The notes below the pieces were generated by a model. The model worked only from the letters and a program-made list of their open reading frames with translations, searched no databases and was not told where the DNA came from. 64,000 nt of DNA from Ophelia neglecta (lineage: Eukaryota). The stretch covers positions 96,410,001 through 96,474,000 of the forward strand of contig OZ260661.1 in assembly GCA_965285935.1 (NCBI GenBank), written 5' to 3'. Position numbers and translations under genes: made by a program. Positions 13,336 to 54,006 of this stretch are shown piece after piece (positions within the stretch are counted from its first letter, which is position 1; each line of letters starts with the position of its first letter).

Positions 13336-15153
13336 CCCTCCTGCATGTGTGTAGTTCCTTGTGGTTATAATTTCTACTAATAAATATTAGAAATTAGGGC
13401 CTAAGCCTGTTCTGTTCTGGGCGTGTAAGCTCTTTCCTGCCGTAATTTGTTGGGAGTATAGGCGCCCCTAACTGGTTCCATAAGTTTGTCTCCTTGCAGC
13501 CTACTCTCCTAGTTACTCTACGACCATATTTTGATCGCTTGCATAGAAAGAGAGAAACAGAGAATATGTAGATTTTTACGTAAATGACTATCCAAGAATA
13601 GGTGCATTTGGTTGTTTTTTTGGGGTTTTTTTTTGGCAGATAAATAGTGAGAAAATAACCAAGGTTTGGTCCTGTATGGATTCCTCTCCAATGGAGTTGG
13701 CTGACGACTGTAGTAGGCCTATAGGCCCATGAATTAAGATCGCGCCTTTTATTACCCAAAGAATGTAGCTAATAAAGGCACGAGCTATAGCCTAGGCCTA
13801 ATTATATATACACAATGTTTTATGCGTTATATATAGGCTAACTGGGAAACATTATATATTTGTGTCATTATTTTTTTTGCGGACCTTGGGACATTGAATG
13901 TTCAATTCACTTATATAATTGTTCGGACAATTAATAACTTCTGCCCAGTATAGGCTTAGGCCTGGACCCAATTTTTTCAGGCTGGTGCTATAGGTCGATA
14001 ATTTAAGTACGGTAGGCCTACGATGGTCTGTACAATGAATAACATGCGTAGATCTACCAGAAGGTGACGGCTATTATATAGACTCTATAATGTATCTAAT
14101 AGGCCTACATTTTATAGTGTGCTATGTCGACCAGATGTCGCGTCACTTAACGGCATTTATAAGCGGCCGGGGGGGGGGGGGGAGGGGCTACAACTTTATG
14201 TTCACAGGACGGTTCCCTGGAGCCTCGATCCAGTGGTGCGCGAGGGTATTTGATTGATACCCAATATAATTGATAGTTTCTCCGCCAGATCTCCCAATGT
14301 TACTGAGCTTTTCTTAAGCGTCTCAAGGAGATACTAAAAGTAGGCTATGTTTAGAGGTAGCAAGTTCAATTGCGTGGGAAACAGTCTAATAAAGGACATA
14401 TCATTAGAAACACGATTTTAAAATAAAAATTGAGTTTTCTTATTTGAAGATCTCTCAAAGATCTGAAGAAAAAAGTCTCCAAGAAAGCAGGGGAAAAATT
14501 GTGTCCAGGTAGCCTATGTAGATTAGGGGGGCCTAAAAAGGTAGGCCTAAGCTAGGATCCACGAAAAATTGATGTCACTGAGAGTTGGCCGGCCCTCTGA
14601 AAAATGATTTCCCTTAGTTCGTTTAAAGTAGCCTACTGTTTAACTTAGCCTATTCACAAAAACCTTTTTTACTAGATAGAACACCCCCTCCCCCCCCCCC
14701 CCCACCCCTACTCCACAGTATATAAATTATGGCTGCGATACGGAGCTGCGGTCCATCCGAAGTTGCGATAGACCTACAGGCTTGGGGAGAGATGGGGTTA
14801 TTAAATCTACATTAATTTAGGCCTAGAGTTAATATCCTGGGAGGGTGGGCCATCTCTCCCAAGGGCCTGACTCTAACCACTTCCCAATTTCTATAAAATT
14901 TTACTATTCCAGATCCAGATTTATTCTTGATAGTAGGCCTAGGAGAAGTATGAATGTGCAGGAACGTGAATTTGGCCTCCAGGGGGCTTAAAGAGCTAGC
15001 TATAAAGCGCTTCTGACAGGAGTGGTGTATTGCGACCTTGACCTCAAAGAGCAACATCCGGTCGGTTCGTAGTGACTTTGCCTAACGCACAGAAGATAGT
15101 TTCACTGATTTATCTTGTATATCACCGGTAAATCGGATACACTATTCGTCAAT

Positions 15154-23990: not shown

Positions 23991-26900
23991 TCACCTTCCA
24001 TCATTTAGGAGCGACTGAAAATAGTAGCTGATGCAGAACTGGGTCATGTAGCCTGTTCCCAATAACAAGGTGCTTGTTCCTTTGTTAATCCCACACAGAA
24101 CTGTCAAAACAATGTAAAAGGAGAATAAATGATTAACTAATATGATCCGCAAGAGAAACACCAACTTCAGTTAAGGGAATATTTTTGCAGCCACATTAAT
24201 GTATCAGCTGCAATTTTGACCAGCATGAGGCTTAATGTAACATTGTGTTCTGCTCCAAAAAACCTAATATTATAGGAGAATCAATTTTCACATAATCCTT
24301 TGCAAGTGGCATGTCCTGCCTTCATTGGCTGAATGGGCTGGTTGGCGTTATTAGCCAATGTATGTTGATTGGCCAAAGCTAATGTGACGCTCAATAGTGG
24401 TAGCTAGTGATAATAATGACTTTTATTCCTCCTCAAGGGAGAGTTGTACAATTAATCAAAATAACGTAGAATAATAGAGGAGAAAATTACATTAAATACA
24501 ACCTAAATAATGATAATAATATAATAATAATGATAATTAATACAATATTTTGGTCCAAAGTGTGATTAAATATGTCAAAATAAATATATGGAGCATAATA
24601 ATAAAAGCTAAGTCAATGTTGAAAATAGAACAATGCATATTCAGCACGATAATTCTGCCTTCATAAGTACAGAGCGGTCGATCATGAGCAAGGCCTATAT
24701 AGATTTAACTGCTACAGCTTAACCCGCTTGACGAACCTAGCTGTCTAATATTTGGCCACTTATATTAGGTGTGGTCACTTATATTAGGTGTGGTCTACAA
24801 TGCAGTACCGTACGATGGGGTCACAACCTGCCTAGACTCCAGGATTGCAATCCTCGCCCTGAGCATCTCGTGGACCGCTGATGCTACAGTTGCATAGCAC
24901 ATTGCTATTTCAGTGTCAAAACTTTCTCCGGTGGCGATCACATAGTGCAACCTCCGCGTGTCATAATTGAGTTGCCAGCTGGACGGAGTAACCATTGGCA
25001 CAGAGTATTGCTTCAGGGTGAGTGCATTATCCAGTTGACTTCGAGTACTGCTGAGGATTGGGCATCTGAAGAGAAAGTGAGCCTCATCTTCGGTCTCGCT
25101 AGAGCATAGGGGACATAACCGCATGTATCTCGGCTTCTTCTCGAACCTTCCAGCGTTTATCTGAAGGGGGTTTTCACCGAGCATCAGCCTAACCATCGTT
25201 CTACAGCTTGGTAGAGAGCCCTGACAGTGAGCGGCGACCCGCCACCACAGGTCAATAGATAAGGGGGCGCTAACGTTCAAGGCTCTCCCCCGGAACATCT
25301 TCAGTCTTGGGTACAGGAGGAGAGATGTTTTCCACTCGTTTGATACCATACGATTAACGGCTGATCGAACCATGGCTTTCCATTTGGGCTTTGACATCAC
25401 TCCACCTGCCAGTAGGACGTCGTCAATCTGACCTTTCAGGCCGTACTCGCAAACAGACTTGTACATCATGGCGATAGGACTATCCCCTGTTCCATTTTGA
25501 TTTGCTTCTGCTAGGTAGAGTCCATCGATGGCGACGTACTTTAACAGCCCGGGTTGCTGCGAAAGGAGGGTTCCTAGAAGACATAGTCGGTGATATCCCA
25601 GCTCGGCTTCGATGCTTCTCCAGCCCAACATAGAATAGGCTGCGGGAGTTGACAGATGCTCAGGTAGTCTCTGGAATCGCTTCCCCCAACTGAGGTGAAA
25701 TCTTTCTAGAGTATGAAGCTGCTTTGAGTTCAGTGGGACGAGCTCTAGGCCGTATAAGAGCGATGGCAGGACAACTGACTGATATAGTTTCGATGCCAGA
25801 ACAGGTTGAAGTCCATAGAAACTGGTACCGACGCCGAACAGCGCACGACATTTACTTCCTGCCTTCACTATGCGGTCATTCAGATAGCTATCTATAAATT
25901 TAGTTAAGTCAGAGATCGGTATTCCTAGGTGCTCACAACCAGGACTAGCCTTTATCACTTGGCCACAGAAGGTGATTTGCGGTGGATCCGCACTTACAGG
26001 TCTAGTATACGCATTACAATCAAATCTCATGAGCACAGTCTTATCGGGGTTGAACGTAAACCGCCACTTGTTGCTGTAGTCCGCAGCTACCTTAAGCAGC
26101 TTCTGTAGGCTGGCGAGGTGTAAGGCAACCAACGCAACGTCGTCGGCGAAAGCCGGGCTAGAGCATGGTAGGGAGAACACAGTCGAGCCCACCTCTAGTG
26201 AGTCTAAGGCCTCCAGAAGGCCAGCCGAGAAAATCTCAAAAAGTCTCATTGATAGTCTGCCTCCCTGAAATACTCCCTGACGCACATCGAACGGTTCGGA
26301 CGTTCTTCCACAGACACGCACAACACACTGAAAGTTAGTATACCAGTTCCGTAGGAGAGTCCAAACTGTGCTGTCAACACCAAGCTTGAAGAGTTTGTAA
26401 AATAAACCGTCTATCCAAACTCTGTCAAACGCCTTTCTCGTGTCTAGTAATGCTACATACACGTCGCTCCCATTAGAAGTGTTATATTTAACAGTTTCTC
26501 GCAACAACAACGATGTGTGTTTGCTGGAGCATCCTGGAAAAGCCGCACCCTGTAGACGGCCAAGCCTGTCGTTTTGCAATAACCACGGGTCTAATCTTCG
26601 TAATATCACACCTTCAAAGAGTTTGCACGCCACTGTGAGTAGGGTGATCTTACGGTAATTGTCCTTTGATAGTTTCGACTTGCTCCCTCCTTTGTGAAGT
26701 GGGATAGCGATGCCCATGAGAAAGTTCCTTGGAATCTGGCAAGATTTTATTATACTGTTAATCAAGATCGTCAATGCCACAATGATTCCCTCACCACCAT
26801 ATCTCACGTGTTCAGGACTGATGTCGTCCCAGCCACCAGCTTTCCCAAGTTTTATGCTGTTGACTACACCTTGGGTTTCCTGGCAAGACACAGGGTCTTG

Positions 26901-29900
26901 GAGAAATCGGGGAAGGTTACTACGGGCTCCTATTTCCATGTCGCATACGGCTTCCTGGACTTCTTCCTTGAAGGACTGATCGTATTCTGCTTCGTCTTTT
27001 GGGGTTGCCAGCTCGCGGAAATATGACTGCCATTCGGTTGTTATTGCCTCTGGGTCGGTGATTATTGAACCATCATCTGACATAATGGGACTGGTTCGAG
27101 CGCCCTGTGGTGCCTTCCTTCTTTTATTGACCATATAGTAGAAGTGCTTTTGGTCAATTTCTCTTGAGCGGATAATTTCAGATTCCTGTTTCAACTCGTA
27201 AGATCTCTCACTGAGTCTGCGGCGCTGTCTGTACTTCCGTTTGTCTTCTTTATATGCCTTATAGAGGGGATGGTTTTTATCACGAGGCTTACCCGCTTCC
27301 TTCCATGTCCATCTAGCAGCGAGATTGTGTTTCTTGTGGTTGGTCAGTTCTCGGGTCCAGTAAGGCTTGAGATGCACATTATGCTTTGAACGTGGCATCC
27401 TCTGCGTAGCTGTTTCCTTCATACCTGACAGAATTTCGTCCAGGAACTCGTCCAAGCATTCCCCTTTAACTCTGGCCTCGCAGCACCATTCAGTAGAGTT
27501 AGTCGAACTTACGCCGAATCTGTGAAAAAATACCAGCTAACCGAACTTGGAGGGGACTGGTGTATCTATCCGTGATATCTTCATTACTTAGCTTATTCCA
27601 TTGTACTTTCTCAGTCAGACAGAGAGAAATACGGCGCACGCCTGCAACTGCCATGTCCAGTTTCATCGGAAGATGGTCCGAGGTGTTTGGAAGGTCATCG
27701 CGCACCTGGCAATGTCTGACTTTGCTGATGATGGAGTTTGACACAATCGCGTGATCGACGTAGGATTTGTGTCCTCTCGAGTTTAAAAAGGTCCAGTTGG
27801 GTCCATCACACGATACCGACACATCATAGACCACACAATCTGCTCTCAGCAAGGACTGCATGAGAGAATAAGCCACCGGAGAAGACTTCCCCCAACCTCT
27901 ATAACCATATTCACTTCCCAAATGGACATTAAGGTCACCCATAACTACTACGGCTCCCTTGTCGTTACCCGCTAACATTAACTCTTCTAACTCACTCAAT
28001 ATATCATATATGTCAGCTATTTTACAATTCTCATACGGTAAATAGGCACCAATAAAACTGATCAATACCGCTTGCCTAGATACGCTACCACTTACATGCA
28101 TGGTTAAACCACATAATCGGTCACTTTCAAGCTTGCTGTTTGTAACACCTTGTAAAGAGTTACGCCAGAAAAGAGCTATCCCACCATGACCAATCCTGTG
28201 TCCATAATCAATACTGTCTAGCCGAGAACTAGCCTTGGCTTCCACACAAAAGTCATTACATAATTCACTTAATTTGTGCAATTCACAAGGGAACAACCAG
28301 TGTTCGCACAAAAATAATATATCACAATCATTAAGCAAATGTTTCAAATACTCAGTTTTACCACTTATTCCATGAGCATTCCATGACACGAGTCTAAGAC
28401 TAGTTGTAGACATAGTTATAACATAGTAATTATATACATAGCAGTAAAATTCTACTAGAAGATATTCAATAATAGTTGTCATTGTAGCTTTTATGGTCAT
28501 ACTCGTATGCCCTTACACCGCTATAAGGTCTATCGTATCTATCGCGGCCGAGATCACTACCAAAACGTTCATTATGCCAGTCACTGTTCTCATCTGTATA
28601 GCCATCGGGTAAGTACCTATCCCGCTGAGAGGTGACTAACCGCTCGCCTCTCGGGTTATTTCTCCTGTTGGAAGCTCGGGGAGGATCTGCGGTCCACTCA
28701 CGACATTGAATATCCTTCGGCCAAAACTCACGGTCCAAACAGACCACCGCTTGAACCTCTGGGACAATAATTTTGCAGTTCACCGTGTCTCTAAAAGTTC
28801 CCATTCTAGGCCTGATCACACGTGCAGATATGATCCGGACCTTCGCTGCGCTTGTCCATCTCCTTAATCGACCAACAATTTCACTGTCATGCTCATCATT
28901 ATCAGAGATATTAGTAATGTACAAGGCCTTTCCCTCTTGTCGACGTGATCCCGAGAGAATTGGTTCACATTGCTGATTAGTGCCCCTCGGGTTCCTGTCT
29001 CGCGCCTGAGCCCGCTTCTGCCTCTTGGACATCTGTTGCTGCCACGATCCCTCGGAAGTCAGAGCTTCGCTATACGTAAGAGCGCCTGAGGAAGTTGTAC
29101 TGGTGTTGACAGTAAGAGGTGCGGTAGGCTGATTGACAGCCTGTCCCGCCTCCTTGTCACTGCCATTAGGCTCAGTCTTGCCCGGTGTGTTGTTGGCCTG
29201 GGCGCGAACAACATCGGAATCACTGGAGGCAAGATTGCCTGTCACATTCTTGTTGGGTGTCAGATCATCAGGTGTGGTTGTTCCGCCTGTCACCACTGCG
29301 GGCGGGGAGGTACCTCCTGAGTGAATCCTTGAACTTGGCTGCGACCCTTGGTGATGTCACACAATATGGTTAGAATCACTTTTCATGTTGGCAAATCACC
29401 GGTCATCGGATTATGACGCTAACTGGCTTGGTCTACCAATGAAGGCCCGACACGTCACTAGCAATAGATTATGTGAAAACGTTAGTCTAATAGAAATTTG
29501 ATTCTCCTATAATTTAAGGTTGGTTGTAAAGTCAATGGGGGAAATAAATCGCAAACAGACCATTACTTCGTTCAAGACATGTACGTTTTTTTAAATGGCA
29601 CTGAAACTAACTGTCAGAGAGTGAATCGCTTAATACATACTGTAAAAACCTTAAATTTCGCTGCCCATAATATTTGTGGTTTTGAAACTCAACTTATTTC
29701 GTTGCCTTTTAATTTTTTTCATATAGAGCTTCATTCAATAGGTTCTCAAAGGCCCTTAATTTTCGTGAGCTATTTAATTTTGCGGTTTTGACCCTGCTCA
29801 CGAAATTAGTGAAAAAACTTGCAAAAATTAAGGGGTTTACAGTATATAGTGTGTTAGCAATAAGAACACAATAGTATGTTATTTGTTAGTACATGTACAT

Positions 29901-35000: not shown

Positions 35001-35248
35001 CTTACCGTATTGTCGCTTATATAAGCGCCTGCGAAGGTGCGCTTATCAGCTAAATATGTAGCGGAAAGTGGGCACCTAATTTAATTTCAAAGACTTTTTA
35101 CTTCAAAAGTGCGTGGCATGGAACAATATAAATGAAAATTTTAACTTAAGAATGATAATGATAGCTTCACTAAGCTTTACTCACAAACAGAAGAGATATC
35201 ATGGCTAATTGATTTTCTATTGTCTAAATGGAAATTCACCGTACTTTA

Positions 35249-36133
35249 TGTAGGCAGACATTAATTACTGTAAAATGATACTACTATATACTGTGTGCAT
35301 AACCCCTAGTTTCATTAACTACTGTCACCAGCGTTATTCCCGCTGCCAATTGTGATTTCGGTATAGGCTGTTAATTAATTTGTGTGGCCATGCAATACGA
35401 TGATTGGCCAACCCTTAAGTACCGAAGCAAACTTGCATATGGTCCCGTCCAGCGTTCAGTCACTTGCCGGACTGAGACCGTCACGTTAACTTCTAACGCT
35501 GCCGTTCCCTACGGAAGCTCACGTGTAAGTTACCATCGTATTTCATTTTATTAAATACTATGTCTTATCCATTTATATAAGGTGTATCTTAAAATACTTA
35601 TTAACAGAAGTGCGATTGTATAATACGACACTGTGCCATTTCAATAATGTTAATTAAACAGTTGACCGTTACCTAAAACAAATATATTGTATTTTATTGT
35701 AGCGCAAGCTAAACCTACAGTCAGCTTTACTCTTTCGCAATTGTATCTTTACGAGTACCAGTTCTTTACTGGGTAAGTTGTGTCTAAGATAGAGAGAATC
35801 CGATAGTATAAACGTAATTCTGACAGACTATTAAACTAGCTAAAACTTTAATGTAAATCATTGAAATGGAAAATTCTGTATTATTTAGTTTTCATTACGA
35901 AGGACGAACCATGATTGTAAAATGCAGGGATATGACTTGTATGTATAAATGCGTATTACCATGTGATATTTTAATCTATTTCCTTTATTGTTACAGCGAC
36001 CAATTGTTATAAATCTTTACACCTATATAAACTGTACCAATAAACCACCTACTACATATCAAATCGCTGTCCCTTTTATGCGTGATTCCTCGGGATCACG
36101 GAAGTAAAGATAACCATAATTCTTTATACCACA
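35249..36133 (+). repeat. 5' LTR (885 bp)
   Basis: TGTAGGCAGAC...TATACCACA; CCAAT ~35403-35411, Inr-like TCAGTC 35456-35461, AATAAA 36039-36044. Confidence 0.97.
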
Positions 36134-36135
36134 AA

Positions 36136-36147
36136 TGGCGTCCCTGG
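36136..36147 (+). promoter_or_regulatory. primer binding site complementary to the tRNA-Asn 3' end
   Basis: TGGCGTCCCTGG, 2 nt after the LTR, is the reverse complement of CCAGGGACGCCA, the metazoan tRNA-Asn(GUU) 3' end as I recall it. Confidence 0.8.
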
Positions 36148-37630
36148 AGGTGGTACAGTTATAATTAGTGTGTAAAAAAAGTAACAATAGGTCTGTGCGC
36201 CCTCAGCATTTAACGACCGGAGACGATAGGCCCAGATAGGCCCAGAGATTCCTATTCCCGACCCCGGAGAGACCACTCCCTGGAGGAACACCTAGAAGAC
36301 CACTACAAAGGAGAGCCCCGGAGCTGAACTGCCAAGCTGTCACTTCATTCAGGCGGCCGGCAGCGGCACTCCCCTCTCACCTCGTGTCACCGCTCCTCGT
36401 GGCTAACATAGTGGCCAACTGTGAACCTCCTGTATACCGTTGTGCAAGACTGTATTGACATTTTGTACAGCCGTCCTCGTATAGCGCGTGACCAATGCTT
36501 CGGACATCGGACTTCCCCTGGAATTCCCGATTCTAAACCCCGCAGCAGGATATCCCCGAACTACGTCATAGGATGTCCTCAGAAAGTCTGGATCATCGCT
36601 CACTCCACAGGACTGCAGGTTGTAGATACTAATATTACTTAGCGCATGCTATTAGTTGCCATAGACAATGACTTTATTGCATGTCCTTTGCATGTAAACC
36701 CAAGTTTGACACATCAACTGTGTCACACATGATTTCCATTGTGTTGAAATTCTTTATTTTTTTAGTCGTTGTTGGTCAAAGTCTAACGTTACAGCCCTTA
36801 ATAGTGTCGTGTCCCTGACAACAACAATCAATGTGATATTAAGACAATTAGAGGCACACCTCTTCCATCACTTTCACTTGCAAAATTGAAACATATTTTT
36901 TTCTTGAATTGATATTTTTCTATAGATGTTTTTTGATAATTATTGGACATTTTTTTGACAAAAAAAAAAAACGAATTTTTACTTTGAAATTTTTAGATTA
37001 ATTATAGATTTGTTCCAAAGAAGAAAAACAAAATTGTATGTTTGAATGTTTTCTGCTCAAACTTTGATAACCCATAAGCAATTTATTTTGTAGTTTCAAA
37101 ATAAATTCTTATAATTAGGTATCATTTTACAACCTCAAGCTAGTTAATTTGATACACTACTTTGGCTGGTACTGGTGAACAGCATGTTACACCTACCGTG
37201 AATTACTGTGATTTGCTATTGATTTATTTTGCATTTGATTTGGTTTAATAAGTTGATGATTTGTTGTGTATATATGTTGGATGGTTATTGATACTTGCTT
37301 GTTACATAAGTTAGTCGCTTGAAACTTGTTGGTTAGGAAGTGTAGAATGTAACAGTCAATTTACATGTATATCCAAGGTTACTTGATAGTTATTGTGTGG
37401 TCCAAAGCATCAGAGTGCTTCTGAGGTTTCCATATTGGGGCACACTTTATCAAATGTGGCATGGGACTACAAATTTGACCTGGACCATGCATGTATAAAA
37501 CATTTTCCTATCCAACTTGGGTGCACATCGAACCCTGCTGTTTTGATTAAACTGATTTTCTCTTTGTATTGGTGACTTTAGAATCGGGTTGTCCCGCACA
37601 TTACCTTAAAGGTCGATTGATAACACTATC

Positions 37631-38785
37631 ATGTCTGACGATGAACCAAATAATGGGGCTACCGGGGAGGATAGGGACTCCATTAATAAAGAAGAGTATG
37701 TACAACTGTTAGATCAATTTAAACTTCTTAAAGCAAATTATGATGACCTAGAAATGAAATATGAGAAAGCGTCTCAACCTAAACCCTATGAGTCTTCATA
37801 CCAAAGCTATTCCAAATTTGATCACAGTGAACATAAAACAGTTTACATGTTGAGGGAAAGAAAATTAAATAAGTTGTCAGGCAAACCATTAAAACCTGGA
37901 GATCCAGATGTCATCGATTGGATACAGGATATGAGAAACTATTTGGAAAGTCAGGAATTGTCAGCAAGGGAGAAAATCACCTATTTACTTGATCACTTGG
38001 GTGGCGATGCCAAAAGAGAAATCAAATATAGACTGCAGGACATCAGATCATACCAACAGATTTTGGACATAATTAGCGAAGTCTTTGGTGACTGCCAATC
38101 GCTATCAGCTTTGCAACAACAGTTTTATACCCTGGTGCAACAAAAAGAAGAAACATTGCATTCGTTTGCTATAAAGCTCATGGCACTCATGACTAAAATA
38201 TGTACGCACACTGATATGTCACCAAGTGAAAAGGATCAAATCTTGAAAGAGAGATTCACCGAAGGACTACGCGATGAACACCTACGACGTGAACTTCGTA
38301 GACTCCAAGATGAGAATAAACGTCTGTCATTTTTTGAATTCAGAGATAGAGTTATAAAGTGGAGTTTAGATGGTCAAGGTAAAAATACTGCTAAAGTACA
38401 GTCAGTAATTACAGACCACACACTGACCCATATACTGCAGGAACAACAGAAGCAACTAGCAAAACAGACTTCACTGATGGAAAAACTTTTGAATAAGTTG
38501 GAGAGTAATCCCAGAAAACAACGGGCTTACCCGGAGCAACACCAAGACCCAAAGTCAGGTCGTAATCAAGACACTCGCACAAGACCTAAAGTCTATACCA
38601 ACAGTGGCAAAGAGAAAACCACATCACTAAAATGTTACAATTGTGGAGGCCTTGGGCATAGAAGTCCTGATTGTCCATCAGAAAAAGGAATTATGAAAAA
38701 CTATACTTATCTCGACAAGGAAAAGGGCGGAAAATACGATTCTAAATCTGCCACCCCTGATGTTACTGCAAAATCATCAAACTAA
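37631..38785 (+). CDS. gag: Gypsy Gag (PNMA-like capsid with CCHC zinc knuckle), 384 aa
   Basis: LDHLGGDAKREI and LKERFTEGLRDEHLRRELR capsid motifs; knuckle CYNCGGLGHRSPDC. Confidence 0.95.
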   Translation: MSDDEPNNGATGEDRDSINKEEYVQLLDQFKLLKANYDDLEMKYEKASQPKPYESSYQSYSKFDHSEHKTVYMLRERKLNKLSGKPLKPGDPDVIDWIQDMRNYLESQELSAREKITYLLDHLGGDAKREIKYRLQDIRSYQQILDIISEVFGDCQSLSALQQQFYTLVQQKEETLHSFAIKLMALMTKICTHTDMSPSEKDQILKERFTEGLRDEHLRRELRRLQDENKRLSFFEFRDRVIKWSLDGQGKNTAKVQSVITDHTLTHILQEQQKQLAKQTSLMEKLLNKLESNPRKQRAYPEQHQDPKSGRNQDTRTRPKVYTNSGKEKTTSLKCYNCGGLGHRSPDCPSEKGIMKNYTYLDKEKGGKYDSKSATPDVTAKSSN

Positions 38786-41700
38786 CTCCCCCCTTTGACG
38801 AGAGTCTGTCACAGGGAGGGAATATAAATGGCTCTCATGGTTTAAGTGATTTGTTGTCGAGGGCAGTAGGGTCATGTCCCACCCAAGAATTTTCAGTAGC
38901 AGGCACACCAACAACTTGTCTTTTAGACACTGGTGCCCAAATTTCTTTGATAAAAGATTGGTACTTCAAAGAACATTTTGCTGATCAAAGTGACAATATT
39001 GAATCTAACGTCACAAACTTTAAAATTACAGCTGCTAACGGTCTAGCTATCCCATATATTGGCCTGATTGCCTTAGATATTTCAGTTTGTAACCAAAACT
39101 TGGGTGAACAAGTTTTCTTTATTGAAAATGATGAAACTGGTGATTATTCTGACATACCTGTAAAAATTGGATGTAACATTTTGAAAAATGCCTCAAAATT
39201 ACCATTTGCGGCCAAGTCAAATTTTACACCATCATTTAACAAGCTGGTGTCCCTTTTTGATGAGAACACTGTGAACCACAATTCTTGTTTCGTGAGAACT
39301 GGTTCTGACCCTCTGTTACTACCTGCATGTAGTATCTCAACAGTTCGAGGTCGAACTAGAAATTTTCCAGGTGGGAGAGAATGTCACGGTTTGGTACAAC
39401 CAATAATTAGCTCATTGCCGAAAAACGTGGCAGTATTTGATACATATTGCACGAACAAAAATGGTTTCGTATCCATTCGAGTCGCTAATGTTGGGCTGGA
39501 AGATACTTGGATCCCAGCAAAGTCGCGCATAGGTACATTCCATCTAGATGTTGGGATTGTGAATAATGATGTAGACAAAGTTAACATTGAAGTGTGTAAT
39601 GATGAAATATGTGTTAGAGTCAACAGGATTAAATGTGATTCGCGCAATTCTGATACACTCCTACCAGATACTGGCGAAAGCCCGGAGTGGTTAACTGAAG
39701 CCATAGTACCAGATAGTTTGTCAACCAATGAAAGGGGAAGGGTGTTTGATATCTTGGCGAAGAATAAAGATCTTTTTCAAATGGACACTGATAATCTCAC
39801 TTTAACACCTTCAATTACACACAAAATTAATCTAGTAGATGATATTCCGGTCAAAATTCCCCATAGACATATCCCCCCTCATCTTATGTCTGAAGTAAAA
39901 GAGCACATTGAGAAACTCTTAAAACAGGACATTATCAGACCCAGTACTAGTCCATATGCTGCACCTGTAGTCTTGGTCAGAAAGAAAGATTCTTCATTAA
40001 GACTGTGTGTAGATTATAGAAAACTTAATGAAAAGACTGTAAAGGACGCCTATCCCTTACCTCGAATCGAGGAAGTCTTTAATAGCTTAAAAGGGACAAA
40101 GTATTATTCCTCATTAGACTTATCGCAAGGTTACCATCAAGTACCTGTCGAGGAGTCAGATATTCACAAGACTGCTTTCAGAGTTGGTATCGGCGGTCTA
40201 TACGAGTACTTAAGGATGCCTTTTGGTTTATGTAATAGTCCTGGAACATTCCAGCGTCTGATGGAACTTTGTTTCAATCAAGAAAATTATGAAATTCTGA
40301 TATTGTTCTTAGATGACATCCTTGTGTACTCTGCAAATTTTGATGACCACCTACAGCGCTTACAGCTTGTCTTTGACATTCTCAGAAAACATAAATTGAA
40401 ACTCAAACTAGGTAAATGTCGGTTTTTTCAGAAAGAGGCTAAATTTTTGGGACATCTAGTTTCTGAGGCCGGTATTTCCACTGATCCAGAAAAGGTTCAG
40501 GCAGTAAAAGAGTGGAAAATTCCAACAAGTGAACAAGAACTACGTTCATTTCTAGGCTTGGCGGGTTACTACCGCAAGTTTATAAAGGGTTTCGCCCAAG
40601 TAGCGTCTCCACTACACGCACTTATTGGTAAAGCCACAACAAAAGGCAAAGGAAAGAAAGTAGACAAAGAGTTAGAAAAGAAACCATTTGTATGGACGGA
40701 TGAATGCACCAAAGCTTTTACGGAGTTGAAAGAAAGGTTGACTTCTGCGCCTATTTTAGGCTACCCTGATTTCACAAAGGAATTCATCCTTGAGACAGAT
40801 GCAAGCTTAGGCGGCCTTGGGGCAGTATTAAGCCAAGAACAGAAAGGAGGCAAAGTTGTAATAGCATACGCTGCACGAACGCTAAAACCATCAGAAAGAA
40901 ACACGAAAAATTACAGCTCGATGAAGCTAGAATTTATGGCTTTGAGATGGGCAATCACCGACAAATTCAGAGACTACTTAATAGGCTGTCCCCATTTCAC
41001 CGTGTACACGGACAACAACCCTCTCTCCTACTTGAAAACGGCAAAACTTGGGGCTACCGAAACACGTTGGGCTGCTCAACTTGCTCCTTTCAATTTCACT
41101 GTTCATTACAGGTCAGGAAAAAGTAATTCCAACGCAGATTCCCTGAGTAGAATGCAGGCAAATGATGTACTGACCGATGTAACCGACAGCAGTCATCTCC
41201 CCCTTCTACCTGAAAACATAAGAACAGTTAAAGTAGAAAGTTTGACTACTTTTTGGTCTTCAGAAATCTCCAAAGACCAACTTAAAGACCTACAAGGGCA
41301 AGACCCTAATATTTCCAGATTTATGGACCTCAAGAACTCCTCCCATAAACCTACTCGTAGACTTCTTGGAAAAGAACCCCGAGAAGTTAGAAAAATGTGT
41401 GCAAAATGGGAACAATTTAGAACCAAAGATGCCATACTCTTTAGGGTCATCAACTCAAGGCTAACGGATAAATGGCAGATTGTGACCCCTTTGTCTCTCA
41501 GAGAACGGATGTTACAGTTAGTGCATGATGAATGCGGTCATCAAGGCACTGAACGAACTTATTCCTTGTTAAAGGATAGGTGTTATTGGCCAAACATGCT
41601 TTCAGACGTAGAAAAGTGGTGTGTCAAGTGTGAACGCTGTATGATTGCCAAAGGCAACCCTGTCACCCCAAATATCAAAAGTTTGATTGCTAGTCGTCCC

Positions 41701-43038
41701 TTGGACATCTTAGCCATTGATTTCACGGTTCTTGAGAAGTCGAGCAGTGGCAAGGAGAATGTACTGGTCATGACAGACATTTGCTCGAAATTTACCAAAT
41801 GTGTCCCAACTAGAGATCAAAAAGCTTTAACAGTAGCTAAAGTCCTAGTTACAGAATGGTTCCAATATTTCGGAGTTGCAAAACGACTACACTCTGACCA
41901 AGGCAGAAATTTTGAAAGCTCTGTGATAGCCGAGTTGTGCAAACTCTACAAAATCAAGAAAACCAGGACAACTCCATACCATCCCCAAGGAAACGGACAA
42001 ACCGAGAGGTATAACCGAACTATGCACAACCTACTAAAAACTCTTCCTCCAGAAAAGAAGAGTAAGTGGCCAGATTATTTACCAGAACTGAACTTTGCCT
42101 ATAACTGTACTCCTCATAAGTCTACAGGTGTGTCGCCCTACTTTCTGATGTATGGCAGAGAGCCCAGACTGCCCATAGACTTGGCACTGGCAGACCTGCA
42201 AGAGACCGACCGCGACAGTGAGTATCTGGTTGACGATTGGATCACTGAGCATCACCAGAAATTAGAATTCGCTTTGCGACATGCATCAGAGAGCACACAC
42301 AAGAAGGCCAAGGAGCGACAAAAATTGTACAATAACAAACGAAGGGTAGGCGAATTTCCACTCAGCATAGGTGCTAGAGTGTTCACAAGGAAACATGTCC
42401 TAGGCAGAAACAAAATACAGGATACGTGGAATCCAGAACCATATATAGTACTTGATAGACTAGATAACAATGTCTACACCGTTCAACAAGCAGACCGAGA
42501 GGGCTGTACAAAAAACGTGTGTAGATCAGAATTACTAGATTCAAAGCAATTATACCTTGAGATACCAGAGCCCAGTGAAAAGCCCGTTGAAAGTGATATA
42601 CAGGCAACCAATGATATTAGCTCTTCTGACGATTCGTCTGAAGATCGTGAAATAATTGATTTTGAATTATCGGTTGAACCTATTAGTGAAAATAAAGCAG
42701 GGAAGAAAATCATCCCTGTAACACCTTTAACCCCTGAACATACCGAACAGAAACAAAACGTTAAGGCTGCAGAGCTCAACTCTACCCCAATTAAAAAGGT
42801 TGCTGACATTGTAGAAACAGTAGATAATAGCGAAACAACAAACCTAGGCAACACTGAGAATGTTGAAGTAAGGCCTCAGGGTTTAAATAATATTAGAAAG
42901 TCAACTAGGGCAAATTTTGGATATCATTCAAATCCCCATAATTTACCCAAATCTGTATTGACAAACTGTGTTACCGGTACAACTAGATTTCTCTACATAC
43001 CTGGCCAAAAAGGCTATGTGGTGGAAACCCTAGTATGA
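38761..43038 (+). CDS. pol: Gypsy Pol (protease, RT, RNase H, integrase) in the -1 frame relative to gag
   Basis: LLDTGA protease, LCVDYRKLN and FLDD RT, ETDAS RNase H, H-x4-H...C-x2-C plus IDF / HSDQG / TER integrase. The frame is open from 38761, overlapping the gag end by 25 nt. Confidence 0.96.
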   Translation, partial: CYCKIIKLTPPFDESLSQGGNINGSHGLSDLLSRAVGSCPTQEFSVAGTPTTCLLDTGAQISLIKDWYFKEHFADQSDNIESNVTNFKITAANGLAIPYIGLIALDISVCNQNLGEQVFFIENDETGDYSDIPVKIGCNILKNASKLPFAAKSNFTPSFNKLVSLFDENTVNHNSCFVRTGSDPLLLPACSISTVRGRTRNFPGGRECHGLVQPIISSLPKNVAVFDTYCTNKNGFVSIRVANVGLEDTWIPAKSRIGTFHLDVGIVNNDVDKVNIEVCNDEICVRVNRIKCDSRNSDTLLPDTGESPEWLTEAIVPDSLSTNERGRVFDILAKNKDLFQMDTDNLTLTPSITHKINLVDDIPVKIPHRHIPPHLMSEVKEHIEKLLKQDIIRPSTSPYAAPVVLVRKKDSSLRLCVDYRKLNEKTVKDAYPLPRIEEVFNSLKGTKYYSSLDLSQGYHQVPVEESDIHKTAFRVGIGGLYEYLRMPFGLCNSPGTFQRLMELCFNQENYEILILFLDDILVYSANFDDHLQRLQLVFDILRKHKLKLKLGKCRFFQKEAKFLGHLVSEAGISTDPEKVQAVKEWKIPTSEQELRSFLGLAGYYRKFIKGFAQVASPLHALIGKATTKGKGKKVDKELEKKPFVWTDECTKAFTELKERLTSAPILGYPDFTKEFILETDASLGGLGAVLSQEQKGGKVVIAYAARTLKPSERNTKNYSSMKLEFMALRWAITDKFRDYLIGCPHFTVYTDNNPLSYLKTAKLGATETRWAAQLAPFNFTVHYRSGKSNSNADSLSRMQANDVLTDVTDSSHLPLLPENIRTVKVESLTTFWSSEISKDQLKDLQGQDPNISRFMDLKNSSHKPTRRLLGKEPREVRKMCAKWEQFRTKDAILFRVINSRLTDKWQIVTPLSLRERMLQLVHDECGHQGTERTYSLLKDRCYWPNMLSDVEKWCVKCERCMIAKGNPVTPNIKSLIASRPLDILAIDFTVLEKSSSGKENVLVMTDICSKFTKCVPTRDQKALTVAKVLVTEWFQYFGVAKRLHSDQGRNFESSVIAELCKLYKIKKTRTTPYHPQGNGQTERYNRTMHNLLKTLPPEKKSKWPDYLPELNFAYNCTPHKSTGVSPYFLMYGREPRLPIDLALADLQETDRDSEYLVDDWITEHHQKLEFALRHASESTHKKAKERQKLYNNKRRVGEFPLSIGARVFTRKHVLGRNKIQDTWNPEPYIVLDRLDNNVYTVQQADREGCTKNVCRSELLDSKQLYLEIPEPSEKPVESDIQATNDISSSDDSSEDREIIDFELSVEPISENKAGKKIIPVTPLTPEHTEQKQNVKAAELNSTPIKKVADIVETVDNSETTNLGNTENVEVRPQGLNNIRKSTRANFGYHSNPHNLPKSVLTNCVTGTTRFLYIPGQKGYVVETLV

Positions 43039-43352
43039 GTTATGAAGTTAACAATCTGCGCAGACGATTAGGGGTATTAGTAAAACTTGTGTTGTTACAC
43101 CACTCCAAAGGAAGTGTATACAGACAAGAATGTATTATTAAACTGGTATTACGTTGAATGAAATTATGCTAGCATTGTAAATATTTTTATACATGTATTT
43201 TTCTATATAAATATATAAAAATAACAAAACAAAAAGAAAAACCTACAGGGATTTGTTTTACAGAGATGATTACTTAATATGTTCTATCCATTTTAAAACC
43301 TCTAAATCATAATATACGGTTGTTGTGGACATCAACGCTTAGCAGGGAAGTT

Positions 43353-44237
43353 TGTAGGCAGACATTAATTACTGTAAAATGATACTACTATATACTGTGT
43401 GCATAACCCCTAGTTTCATTAACTACTGTCACCAGCGTTATTCCCGCTGCCAATTGTGATTTCGGTATAGGCTGTTAATTAATTTGTGTGGCCATGCAAT
43501 ACGATGATTGGCCAACCCTTAAGTACCGAAGCAAACTTGCATATGGTCCCGTCCAGCGTTCAGTCACTTGCCGGACTGAGACCGTCACGTTAACTTCTAA
43601 CGCTGCCGTTCCCTACGGAAGCTCACGTGTAAGTTACCATCGTATTTCATTTTATTAAATACTATGTCTTATCCATTTATATAAGGTGTATCTTAAAATA
43701 CTTATTAACAGAAGTGCGATTGTATAATACGACACTGTGCCATTTCAATAATGTTAATTAAACAGTTGACCGTTACCTAAAACAAATATATTGTATTTTA
43801 TTGTAGCGCAAGCTAAACCTACAGTCAGCTTTACTCTTTCGCAATTGTATCTTTACGAGTACCAGTTCTTTACTGGGTAAGTTGTGTCTAAGATAGAGAG
43901 AATCCGATAGTATAAACGTAATTCTGACAGACTATTAAACTAGCTAAAACTTTAATGTAAATCATTGAAATGGAAAATTCTGTATTATTTAGTTTTCATT
44001 ACGAAGGACGAACCATGATTGTAAAATGCAGGGATATGACTTGTATGTATAAATGCGTATTACCATGTGATATTTTAATCTATTTCCTTTATTGTTACAG
44101 CGACCAATTGTTATAAATCTTTACACCTATATAAACTGTACCAATAAACCACCTACTACATATCAAATCGCTGTCCCTTTTATGCGTGATTCCTCGGGAT
44201 CACGGAAGTAAAGATAACCATAATTCTTTATACCACA
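43353..44237 (+). repeat. 3' LTR (885 bp)
   Basis: Same length as the 5' LTR; no differences seen in the stretches compared by eye. Confidence 0.97.
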
Positions 44238-45099
44238 TTTATATAATACAATAATTCTTGTAATATTGTCACTTCTACTTGTAACGTTAGTTGGGTTAGC
44301 ACCCCAATGAAATATCGAATACTTGAACACTAACTGCCATATAACCATGGCCACCACATCAGCTTTCAATTCCTGTGTTAGATCTGACCTGACCCCTGAC
44401 AACTATTTTTTTGCATAATATAGATCATGTGCCTGATTGGCTAATAATTGACCTGATCCATCCTATTATAAGGAATGGAAAAATCTTGACATTTTAAAAG
44501 GTGCTCTATAGTTCCCAATAAGTTTTGCGGCATGATCAACTGGTAATACAAAAAGAACATTGCATAAAGAAAAGATATATTATTTAGGGTTTTCAATTAT
44601 TTTGAAGAAAATCTCACATAAAAGGGAAACATTGCTATAAATTCCATCATATATAAATTTCGTATATATTATAAATGCTAATTTTGGCTGGGGGAGGCTC
44701 AGGGTGTGTATATGTGATAATTTACATTAAAAGTTTAAGGGATTTGTTTCCAAAAATATGACCATAGGGATTAAATAGCCTTAATATATTCCTGGGTCAT
44801 TGTAAATATTCCAAAGCAGCTTTTTTGGTCAATTTTTTTTTCATGATTTATATCTCTTTCTCCAGCATGGATGCCAGCCAAGTCTTTCTAGTTTCAGATA
44901 GCTCCTTGAGTGGCTTGTGGACAGTGTGGATTTCACAGATGAACACATGGGGACCAATGCCATTTATAAAGATATCTCTTTTTTTGGATTTGTTTCTACA
45001 TCAGACCCTTCTACAGAAACTGTCTAAGTTGGGTACATGTCGGAGAGATGTGCCAGATTTTTTTTTTCCTTTCTTGGAGGCCACAGCTTGGGAGCTAGA

Positions 45100-46681: not shown

Positions 46682-54006
<7,325 letters not shown>

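Follow-up and report, generated by a model that had tools for sequence, protein, structure and literature searches.

The LTR of a young Ty3/Gypsy retrotransposon of Ophelia neglecta contains two true introns: copies lacking them to the base occur in the same genome, and LTRs with and without introns were found in all sister families examined. In many of these families, a hairpin predicted at the last splice junction would be completed only by splicing. We tentatively suggest that splicing acts unequally at the 5′ and 3′ ends of the genomic RNA and that this hairpin helps to return the intron to new copies during reverse transcription.

The element lies within the 64,000 nucleotides analyzed here (the window), and its features are listed in Table 1. 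Its LTRs are direct repeats with TG...CA ends, 885 nt each and 100% identical between the 5′ and 3′ copies, and together with the TSD and the gag-pol order they identify it as a young Ty3/Gypsy LTR retrotransposon. Pfam matches within pol are RVT_1 (406-565), RT_RNaseH (645-777), and rve (978-1075). Gmr1 elements carry the integrase before RT, an order not found in the window element, and its RNase H, rve integrase, and true LTRs set it apart from Penelope-like elements. Named RT relatives are fish and frog elements at ~50 to 58% identity, with other relatives at up to 67%. The candidate primer-binding site is putatively of the tRNA-Asn type. The leader contains no GT(A/G)AG donor and no strong acceptor; in 13 elements, comprising sister elements and the window element (36134-37630), leaders span 1.0 to 2.6 kb and hold 20 to 49 ATGs before gag, again with no strong acceptor. 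Elsewhere in the window, a LINE-type element on the minus strand (24795-29356) has a 296-aa frame, an endonuclease frame, and an RT frame, separate and overlapping, and is flanked by 92-nt inverted arms (24285-24376 and 29388-29479). Tandem arrays occupy 813-3125 (unit of ~450 nt), 12874-13346 (~51 nt), and 50398-50760 (~23 nt).

Table 1. Features of the intron-bearing Ty3/Gypsy element, in window coordinates
Feature	Position	Strand	Remark
Ty3/Gypsy retrotransposon holding the intron-bearing LTR	35249-44237	+	
Left TSD, TTTA	35245..35248	+	right copy 44238-44241
5′ LTR, 885 nt, TG...CA	35249..36133	+	same sequence as 3′ LTR
Candidate initiator	35456..35465	+	putative start site
Exon 1, no ATG, GC 0.56	35457..35524	+	putative 5′ end
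Intron 1, 178 nt, GT..AG	35525..35702	+	absent to the base in L025, L026, L027, L029, L032, L033
Exon 2, 70 nt, no ATG	35703..35772	+	
Predicted 5-bp hairpin CCAGT/ACTGG	35758..35772	+	ends exactly at donor 2
Intron 2, 224 nt, GT..AG	35773..35996	+	absent to the base in L025, L026, L027, L029, L032, L033, L022
Exon 3, up to putative cleavage region	35997..36065	+	putative 3′ end, from AATAAA
Poly(A) signal AATAAA	36039..36044	+	43 nt after acceptor 2
Candidate primer-binding site TGGCGTCCCTGG	36136..36147	+	TGG start, expected place
Leader, 1497 nt, 22 ATGs	36134..37630	+	
gag, PNMA-type capsid and CCHC zinc knuckle, open frame	37631..38785	+	Pfam PNMA, zf-CCHC
pol frame, 1425 aa, open; order RT, RNase H, integrase	38761..43038	+	Pfam
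Candidate polypurine tract	43341..43350	+	5′ of 3′ LTR, expected place
3′ LTR	43353..44237	+	introns 43629-43806 and 43877-44100, same two as 5′ LTR

A first-pass annotation had described the LTR as a spliced non-coding unit of three exons, present in both LTRs, with a 70-nt middle exon and no ATG in any exon. Its motif positions are all correct (TCAGTC at 35456-35461, GTAAGT at 35525 and 35773, acceptors ending at 35702 and 35996, AATAAA at 36039-36044, and TATATAA at 36024), and so are the middle exon and the presence of the unit at both ends. The three exons and both exon junctions are free of ATG, and the introns hold 10. CCAAT was said to precede the initiator-like TCAGTC; a forward CCAAT does occur at 35346, but the CAAT box nearest the initiator is reversed (ATTGG, 35403-35407). 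Splice motifs alone are weak evidence for introns, because two GTAAGT also arise in 106 of 2,000 dinucleotide shuffles of the window LTR. Across 11 family copies, no other long part of the LTR has changed as little as intron 2 (35773-35996), in which 48 of 2,458 positions differ; in the same, non-independent copies, 59 of 747 positions differ in exon 2 and 62 of 2,250 in U3. Intron 2 may contain a functional element.

The introns were instead recognized from copies that lack them. Searching the same genome with the window LTR gave at least 52 matches; 40 of 41 candidates were scored, so the counts that follow are lower bounds. Several matches consist of LTR positions 1-276, 455-524, and 748-885 lying end to end, and the intron-less copies break exactly at LTR 276/455 and 524/749, with microhomology of 0 and 1 nt. 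With duplicated loci counted once, and with two loci and one truncated duplicate ending before the first donor left out, 23 insertions are informative. Four have lost both introns (L025, L026/L027, L029, and the old L032/L033 group), and one, L022, has lost intron 2 with intron 1 present. The remaining 18 keep their introns, as the first-pass annotation had supposed of the element, together with the GTAAGT donors and the acceptors, apart from one change in one donor. L026 and L027 are the two LTRs of one full-length element whose inner part, together with the leader, is 98% identical and unspliced. In L029, ~70 nt flanked by a ~9-nt repeat are inserted in the hairpin before junction 2. Two further candidates were set aside: the two LTR-like matches at L032, considered as an element, proved to be a segmental duplication, and the deletion in L113 is not GT-AG.

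Intron loss is the classic proof of movement through RNA. In a tree built from exon columns, the intron-less copies are scattered; forcing them into a single clade is rejected (p-AU 0.0006), and grouping L025 with L026/L027 alone gave a p-AU of 0.047. Because the intron-less copies do not form one clade and the losses are exact, splicing followed by reverse transcription took place repeatedly. Judged by their GT..AG ends, donor consensus, and pyrimidine-rich acceptors, the two LTR introns, which the first-pass annotation had proposed, are true U2-type spliceosomal introns. Their exact removal from RNA is seen indirectly, in retro-copies of several origins that lack them to the base, and spliced RNA is evidently reverse-transcribed, as indicated by 5 of 23 insertions. 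The same annotation had named a search for intron-less LTR copies as a check on its reading, and these copies answer it; taken as a whole, its interpretation is supported in part.

Is the trait restricted to this family? From 150 RT matches we took 20 elements, 17 of which gave an LTR pair directly; the other three were nested or tandem. Both intron-bearing and GT-AG-exact intron-less LTRs were present in 11 of 11 families examined, with RT 49 to 100% identical: the window family and ten sister families (L051/L053, L059, L061, L063, L067, L071, L073, L075, L085, and L087). The introns of L073, L063, and L071 were predicted from the layout before their searches. Intron lengths across the clade are 125 to 435 nt, L067, L071, and L075 have two introns as in the window, and the same layout was seen in L055, L065, L069, and L077. 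Intron 2 of the window LTR sits at the position of the clade-wide intron. Splice-site conservation, also named beforehand as a check, is found at two levels: copies within the family keep the sites themselves, and sister families keep the layout. In an RT/RNase H tree of elements from this genome only, the intron families form one branch (SH-aLRT 100), and the layout was not seen by eye in three elements outside that branch (L079, L081, and L083).

In the sister families, too, intron-less copies do not form one clade in L067 (p<1e-50) or L075 (p=0.012), and three L067-family insertions may form a small intron-less sub-lineage (80/77 support). Three LTRs of the L075 family, from two insertions, lack intron 1 and keep intron 2, the opposite of L022. 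Because some full-length elements lack the intron and have open gag and pol frames (L053 and the C31 element), and given the possible L067 sub-lineage, the intron is not strictly needed. One element of the L059 family, L091/L092 (G000:C1:147683841-147691954), combines an intron-less 5′ LTR with an intron-bearing 3′ LTR, enclosed by a single TSD (GAAG), and these LTRs show 2 further differences in 330 shared bases; the two forms met in one event or through later conversion, and the element does not separate the models discussed below. Several structural oddities were also recorded. Two insertions interrupt the intron-less 3′ LTR of L148 (G000:C14:118458-124034): one of 3.6 kb, with inverted ends, within a few bases of junction 1, and one of 1.5 kb adjoining junction 2. 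In that element, junction 2 also contains 4 additional bases in both LTRs. The L075 family includes tandem elements sharing an LTR (G000:C12:53421601-53438170 and L116). CCGC-Y-AGGTG-like motifs, which we presume to resemble the CTCF site, recur in U3 of L063, L065, L067, L069, L071, L085, and L087.

The only LTR stretch with blastn similarity between the window family and its sister families is the 15 to 25 nt before the last donor, which reads CC, a short loop region, GG, and then GT. Past the last acceptor, the first 3 to 9 bases can form Watson-Crick pairs with the bases 5′ of this CC in 9 of 13 families; the unspliced state gives at most 2 such pairs. The pairing is kept with lineage-specific sequences: AAT/ATT, AAAGT/ACTTT (L071), AAAACC/GGTTTT (L087), and ACAC/GTGT (L075). 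The L071 pairing is present in the natural intron-less copies L229 and L230, and for the arms of L087 and L075 the best partner is the exon start of the same family (9 and 6 pairs). Conservation is uneven along the last exon in the L071 family: its initial 6 nt vary at 1 of 66 positions, and the remainder at 177 of 840. The pooled test of junction pairing, which was post hoc, gave p=0.003; over a 70-nt span the signal is weaker, only 5 of 13 last junctions falling in the top 10% of control 18-mers.

The splice-completed helix was not found in the window family, L065, or L085. In the window family, pairing past the junction amounts to 0 pairs, no better than at 31 of 35 decoy AG sites, and no junction helix emerged from the family alignment or against controls, only from a single fold of L025 (z −0.17). 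Its 5-bp stem ends at the donor, so that the base of the stem remains at the junction after splicing. On these predicted structures, a hairpin completed only by splicing appears to be conserved, and spliced R would thus be a working part of the replication cycle. When the LTR and leader were searched for structured RNA, snoRNA included, a single Rfam match resulted, below threshold (E=0.46). A layout in which the intron tail copies the preceding exon was absent, the best local matches being 9 to 10 nt with a mismatch.

AATAAA lies downstream of a splice donor in both window LTRs, in putative R. Of 12 families scanned for this signal, 9 have it 27 to 138 nt past the last acceptor (measured from the first acceptor in L075). 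In L073 and L087, the acceptor reads ATTAAAG; because ATTAAA overlaps the acceptor and no common hexamer occurs later in the LTR, splicing would remove the poly(A) signal. This ATTAAA is kept in 11 of 12 L073-family LTRs, and one older L087-type copy has ATTAAG. The group L159-L170, together with L087, has an unusual AAG last acceptor containing ATTAAA, and its gag ATG is only 36 to 45 nt past the LTR. The first-pass annotation had also inferred that splicing yields a separate mRNA, for which we found no support: the AG sites close to the start of gag have poor scores, and within the final 100 nt of the leader the best AG ranks 17 of 72 in the window element and comes first in 1 of 13 long leaders. 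A spliced gag mRNA joining the LTR donor to an acceptor near gag was therefore rejected. The stretch 37250-38250 is whole in 5 of 5 close copies.

Some mechanism is needed to explain why a clade of LTRs keeps its introns across families whose RTs are only about half identical. The simplest way for a spliced R to coexist with an intron that is passed on would be unequal splicing at the 5′ and 3′ ends of the genomic RNA, and this is the account we lean toward, while holding it as somewhat short of probable. The cap-near 5′ R would be mostly spliced and the 3′ R mostly unspliced. On the spliced 5′ R, reverse transcriptase would copy U5 and the last exon, meet a hairpin with its base at the last splice junction or just 3′ of it, and pause. 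The paused RT would then jump early to the unspliced 3′ R, and the intron would be copied back into both new LTRs; read-through of the junction, or a spliced 3′ R, would yield an intron-less LTR. In L073 and L087, splicing would also leave the 5′ LTR without its one standard poly(A) signal. L022, which lost intron 2 only, has the pattern expected of a jump inside exon 2. The L075 copies lacking only intron 1 do not fit, and the window family, L065, and L085 show no splice-completed helix. Early jumps would also have to be the rule, and in retroviruses they are a minority event. Hairpin pausing itself can trigger strand transfer in retroviruses, according to the accessible text of PMC6088434.

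A realistic competitor, similar to the reading in the first-pass annotation and given a good minority of our confidence, is that unspliced RNA is preferentially copied. Spliced transcripts from the 5′ LTR would mostly be polyadenylated there as a short non-coding RNA, U1 bound to unspliced donors would allow read-through and packaging, strong-stop DNA would be made from unspliced 5′ R, and intron-less copies would be leaks. Only one condition is required, the AATAAA past the last acceptor in 9 of 12 families is suitably placed, the stem before the donor could damp splicing, and the L075 pattern (intron 1 lost, intron 2 kept) fits. Precedents exist in foamy virus, where a donor in R and U1 suppress 5′ polyadenylation (PMC3694450, in part), and in maize, whose LTRs make spliced three-exon RNAs contained in the LTR (PMC13192763, in part). 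However, a hairpin formed only after splicing, with pairing kept across lineages, has no role under this model, which also accords poorly with an ATTAAA inside the intron in L073 and L087. About one-fifth of insertions derive from spliced RNA, and no LINE-copied short LTR RNA was found among the at least 52 matches in this genome.

Alternatively, but improbably, the introns may serve ordinary expression through intron-mediated enhancement, export, or removal of upstream ATGs. Both ends would then be partly spliced, loss would be a passive leak, and intron-less lineages would fade through lower expression. The ATG-free exons beside introns with 10 ATGs, the single-intron losses in both directions (L022 and the L075 family), and the open frames of some intron-less elements are all consistent with such a role. 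It leaves the junction hairpin and the poly(A) signal in the acceptor unexplained, and 22 ATGs are present in any case in the 1.5-kb leader that follows the LTR.

Our preferred account, with unequally spliced ends, places the introns in R. Exact intron loss alone does not, because U3 is also copied from RNA. TATATAA followed by AATAAA is a common short-R layout, and transcription might start after the TATATAA at 36024, as the first-pass annotation had considered; the introns would then lie in U3 and be spliced only as 3′-UTR introns of genomic RNA, a placement also compatible with exact loss. We regard this as very unlikely. TATATAA is changed in all six older readable copies (L017-L021 and L029) and was not found in L032/L033, while the upstream CAGTC-A/T motif (35457) survives in 26 of the 27 family copies that can be read, as well as in L228, the nearest other family. 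Furthermore, L228 has a TATA box ~30 nt upstream of that motif, and L077 has one upstream of its donor. These observations favor introns in R, with transcription probably starting near 35460. A 5-bp hairpin, CAGTC/GACTG, at the putative RNA 5′ end (35457-35474) keeps its pairing in almost all 22 family rows and is also present in L228.

It is hardly credible that the intron-less copies arose by DNA deletion or assembly error, or that the introns were recently inserted: one other junction examined, L112, was indeed a microhomology deletion and was rejected as a splice product, but the copies in question show two separate GT-AG-exact losses within one copy with 0 to 1 nt of microhomology, have several origins, recur in eleven families and in both LTRs of whole elements with TSDs, and include an intron-1-less junction also present, at single-copy depth, in Logan contigs of two runs, perhaps from the same sample. 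Sequencing runs X1-X3 behave as genomic DNA, with flank depth of ~8 to 15 and LTR depth of ~160 to 1,000.

Parts of this arrangement have parallels in known systems. In the accessible text of PMC13192763, maize LTR retrotransposons, mostly Ty3 or unclassified, produce spliced non-coding RNAs contained in the LTR, often of three exons with a short middle exon, much like the unit described here. Those are plant elements with introns averaging ~1.3 kb and were shown by RNA, whereas ours are animal elements, known from genome sequence, with introns of 125 to 435 nt, intron-less retro-copies, a clade-wide position, and a junction hairpin; the terms "intronless" and "intron loss" do not occur in the portion of that text available. 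In foamy virus, the major donor is in R, U1 suppresses 5′ polyadenylation, and RNA structure releases the signal at the 3′ end (PMC3694450, in part). The window LTR likewise has a donor upstream of the poly(A) signal at both ends and predicted RNA structure at the donor. Foamy virus R has a donor only, whereas the window LTR encloses entire introns, acceptors included, which progeny can lose. Penelope-like elements retain a 5′-UTR intron in their pseudo-LTR for a reason stated as unknown in the part of PMC8557442 consulted, and so also keep a spliceosomal intron in a terminal repeat through RNA-based copying, but they have another RT class and copying mechanism; the window element is of the integrase-bearing LTR type and presumably tRNA-primed. 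The HIV-1 TAR and poly(A) hairpins in R have been proposed to steer RT and strand transfer (PMC6088434 and PMC12789967, in part). Those hairpins are independent of splicing, and the role of the hairpin in the window clade is putative.

Our literature search, mostly of open-access main texts, found no report of introns in animal Ty3/Gypsy LTRs with intron-less copies, of a splice-completed hairpin, or of such an intron-keeping mechanism. The main text of PMC8556966, on annelid LTR elements, contains neither "intron" nor "splic", and the accessible parts of PMC4558846, PMC12786077, and PMC1636488 do not bear on LTR introns. Spliced LTR transcripts were already known, from maize; the predicted splice-completed pairing at the last junction is new here, and both it and the clade-wide LTR intron go beyond the first-pass annotation.

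For annotation, a single family here yields LTRs of 885, 670, and 483 nt, which length-based tools could split. Each insertion records whether spliced or unspliced R was copied, spliced in about 1 in 5 in the window family, so that splice state, strand-transfer point, and control of the 5′ poly(A) signal become countable without an engineered marker. It is conceivable, if rather unlikely, that the whole Gypsy clade uses its LTR intron as a splice-dependent switch, in which splicing of the 5′ R completes the hairpin, with the added effect in some families of removing the 5′ poly(A) signal, and the hairpin leads to an early jump to the unspliced 3′ R that rebuilds the intron in each round. If true, such a switch would be a way both to resolve the asymmetry between 5′ and 3′ LTRs and to keep the intron through reverse transcription.
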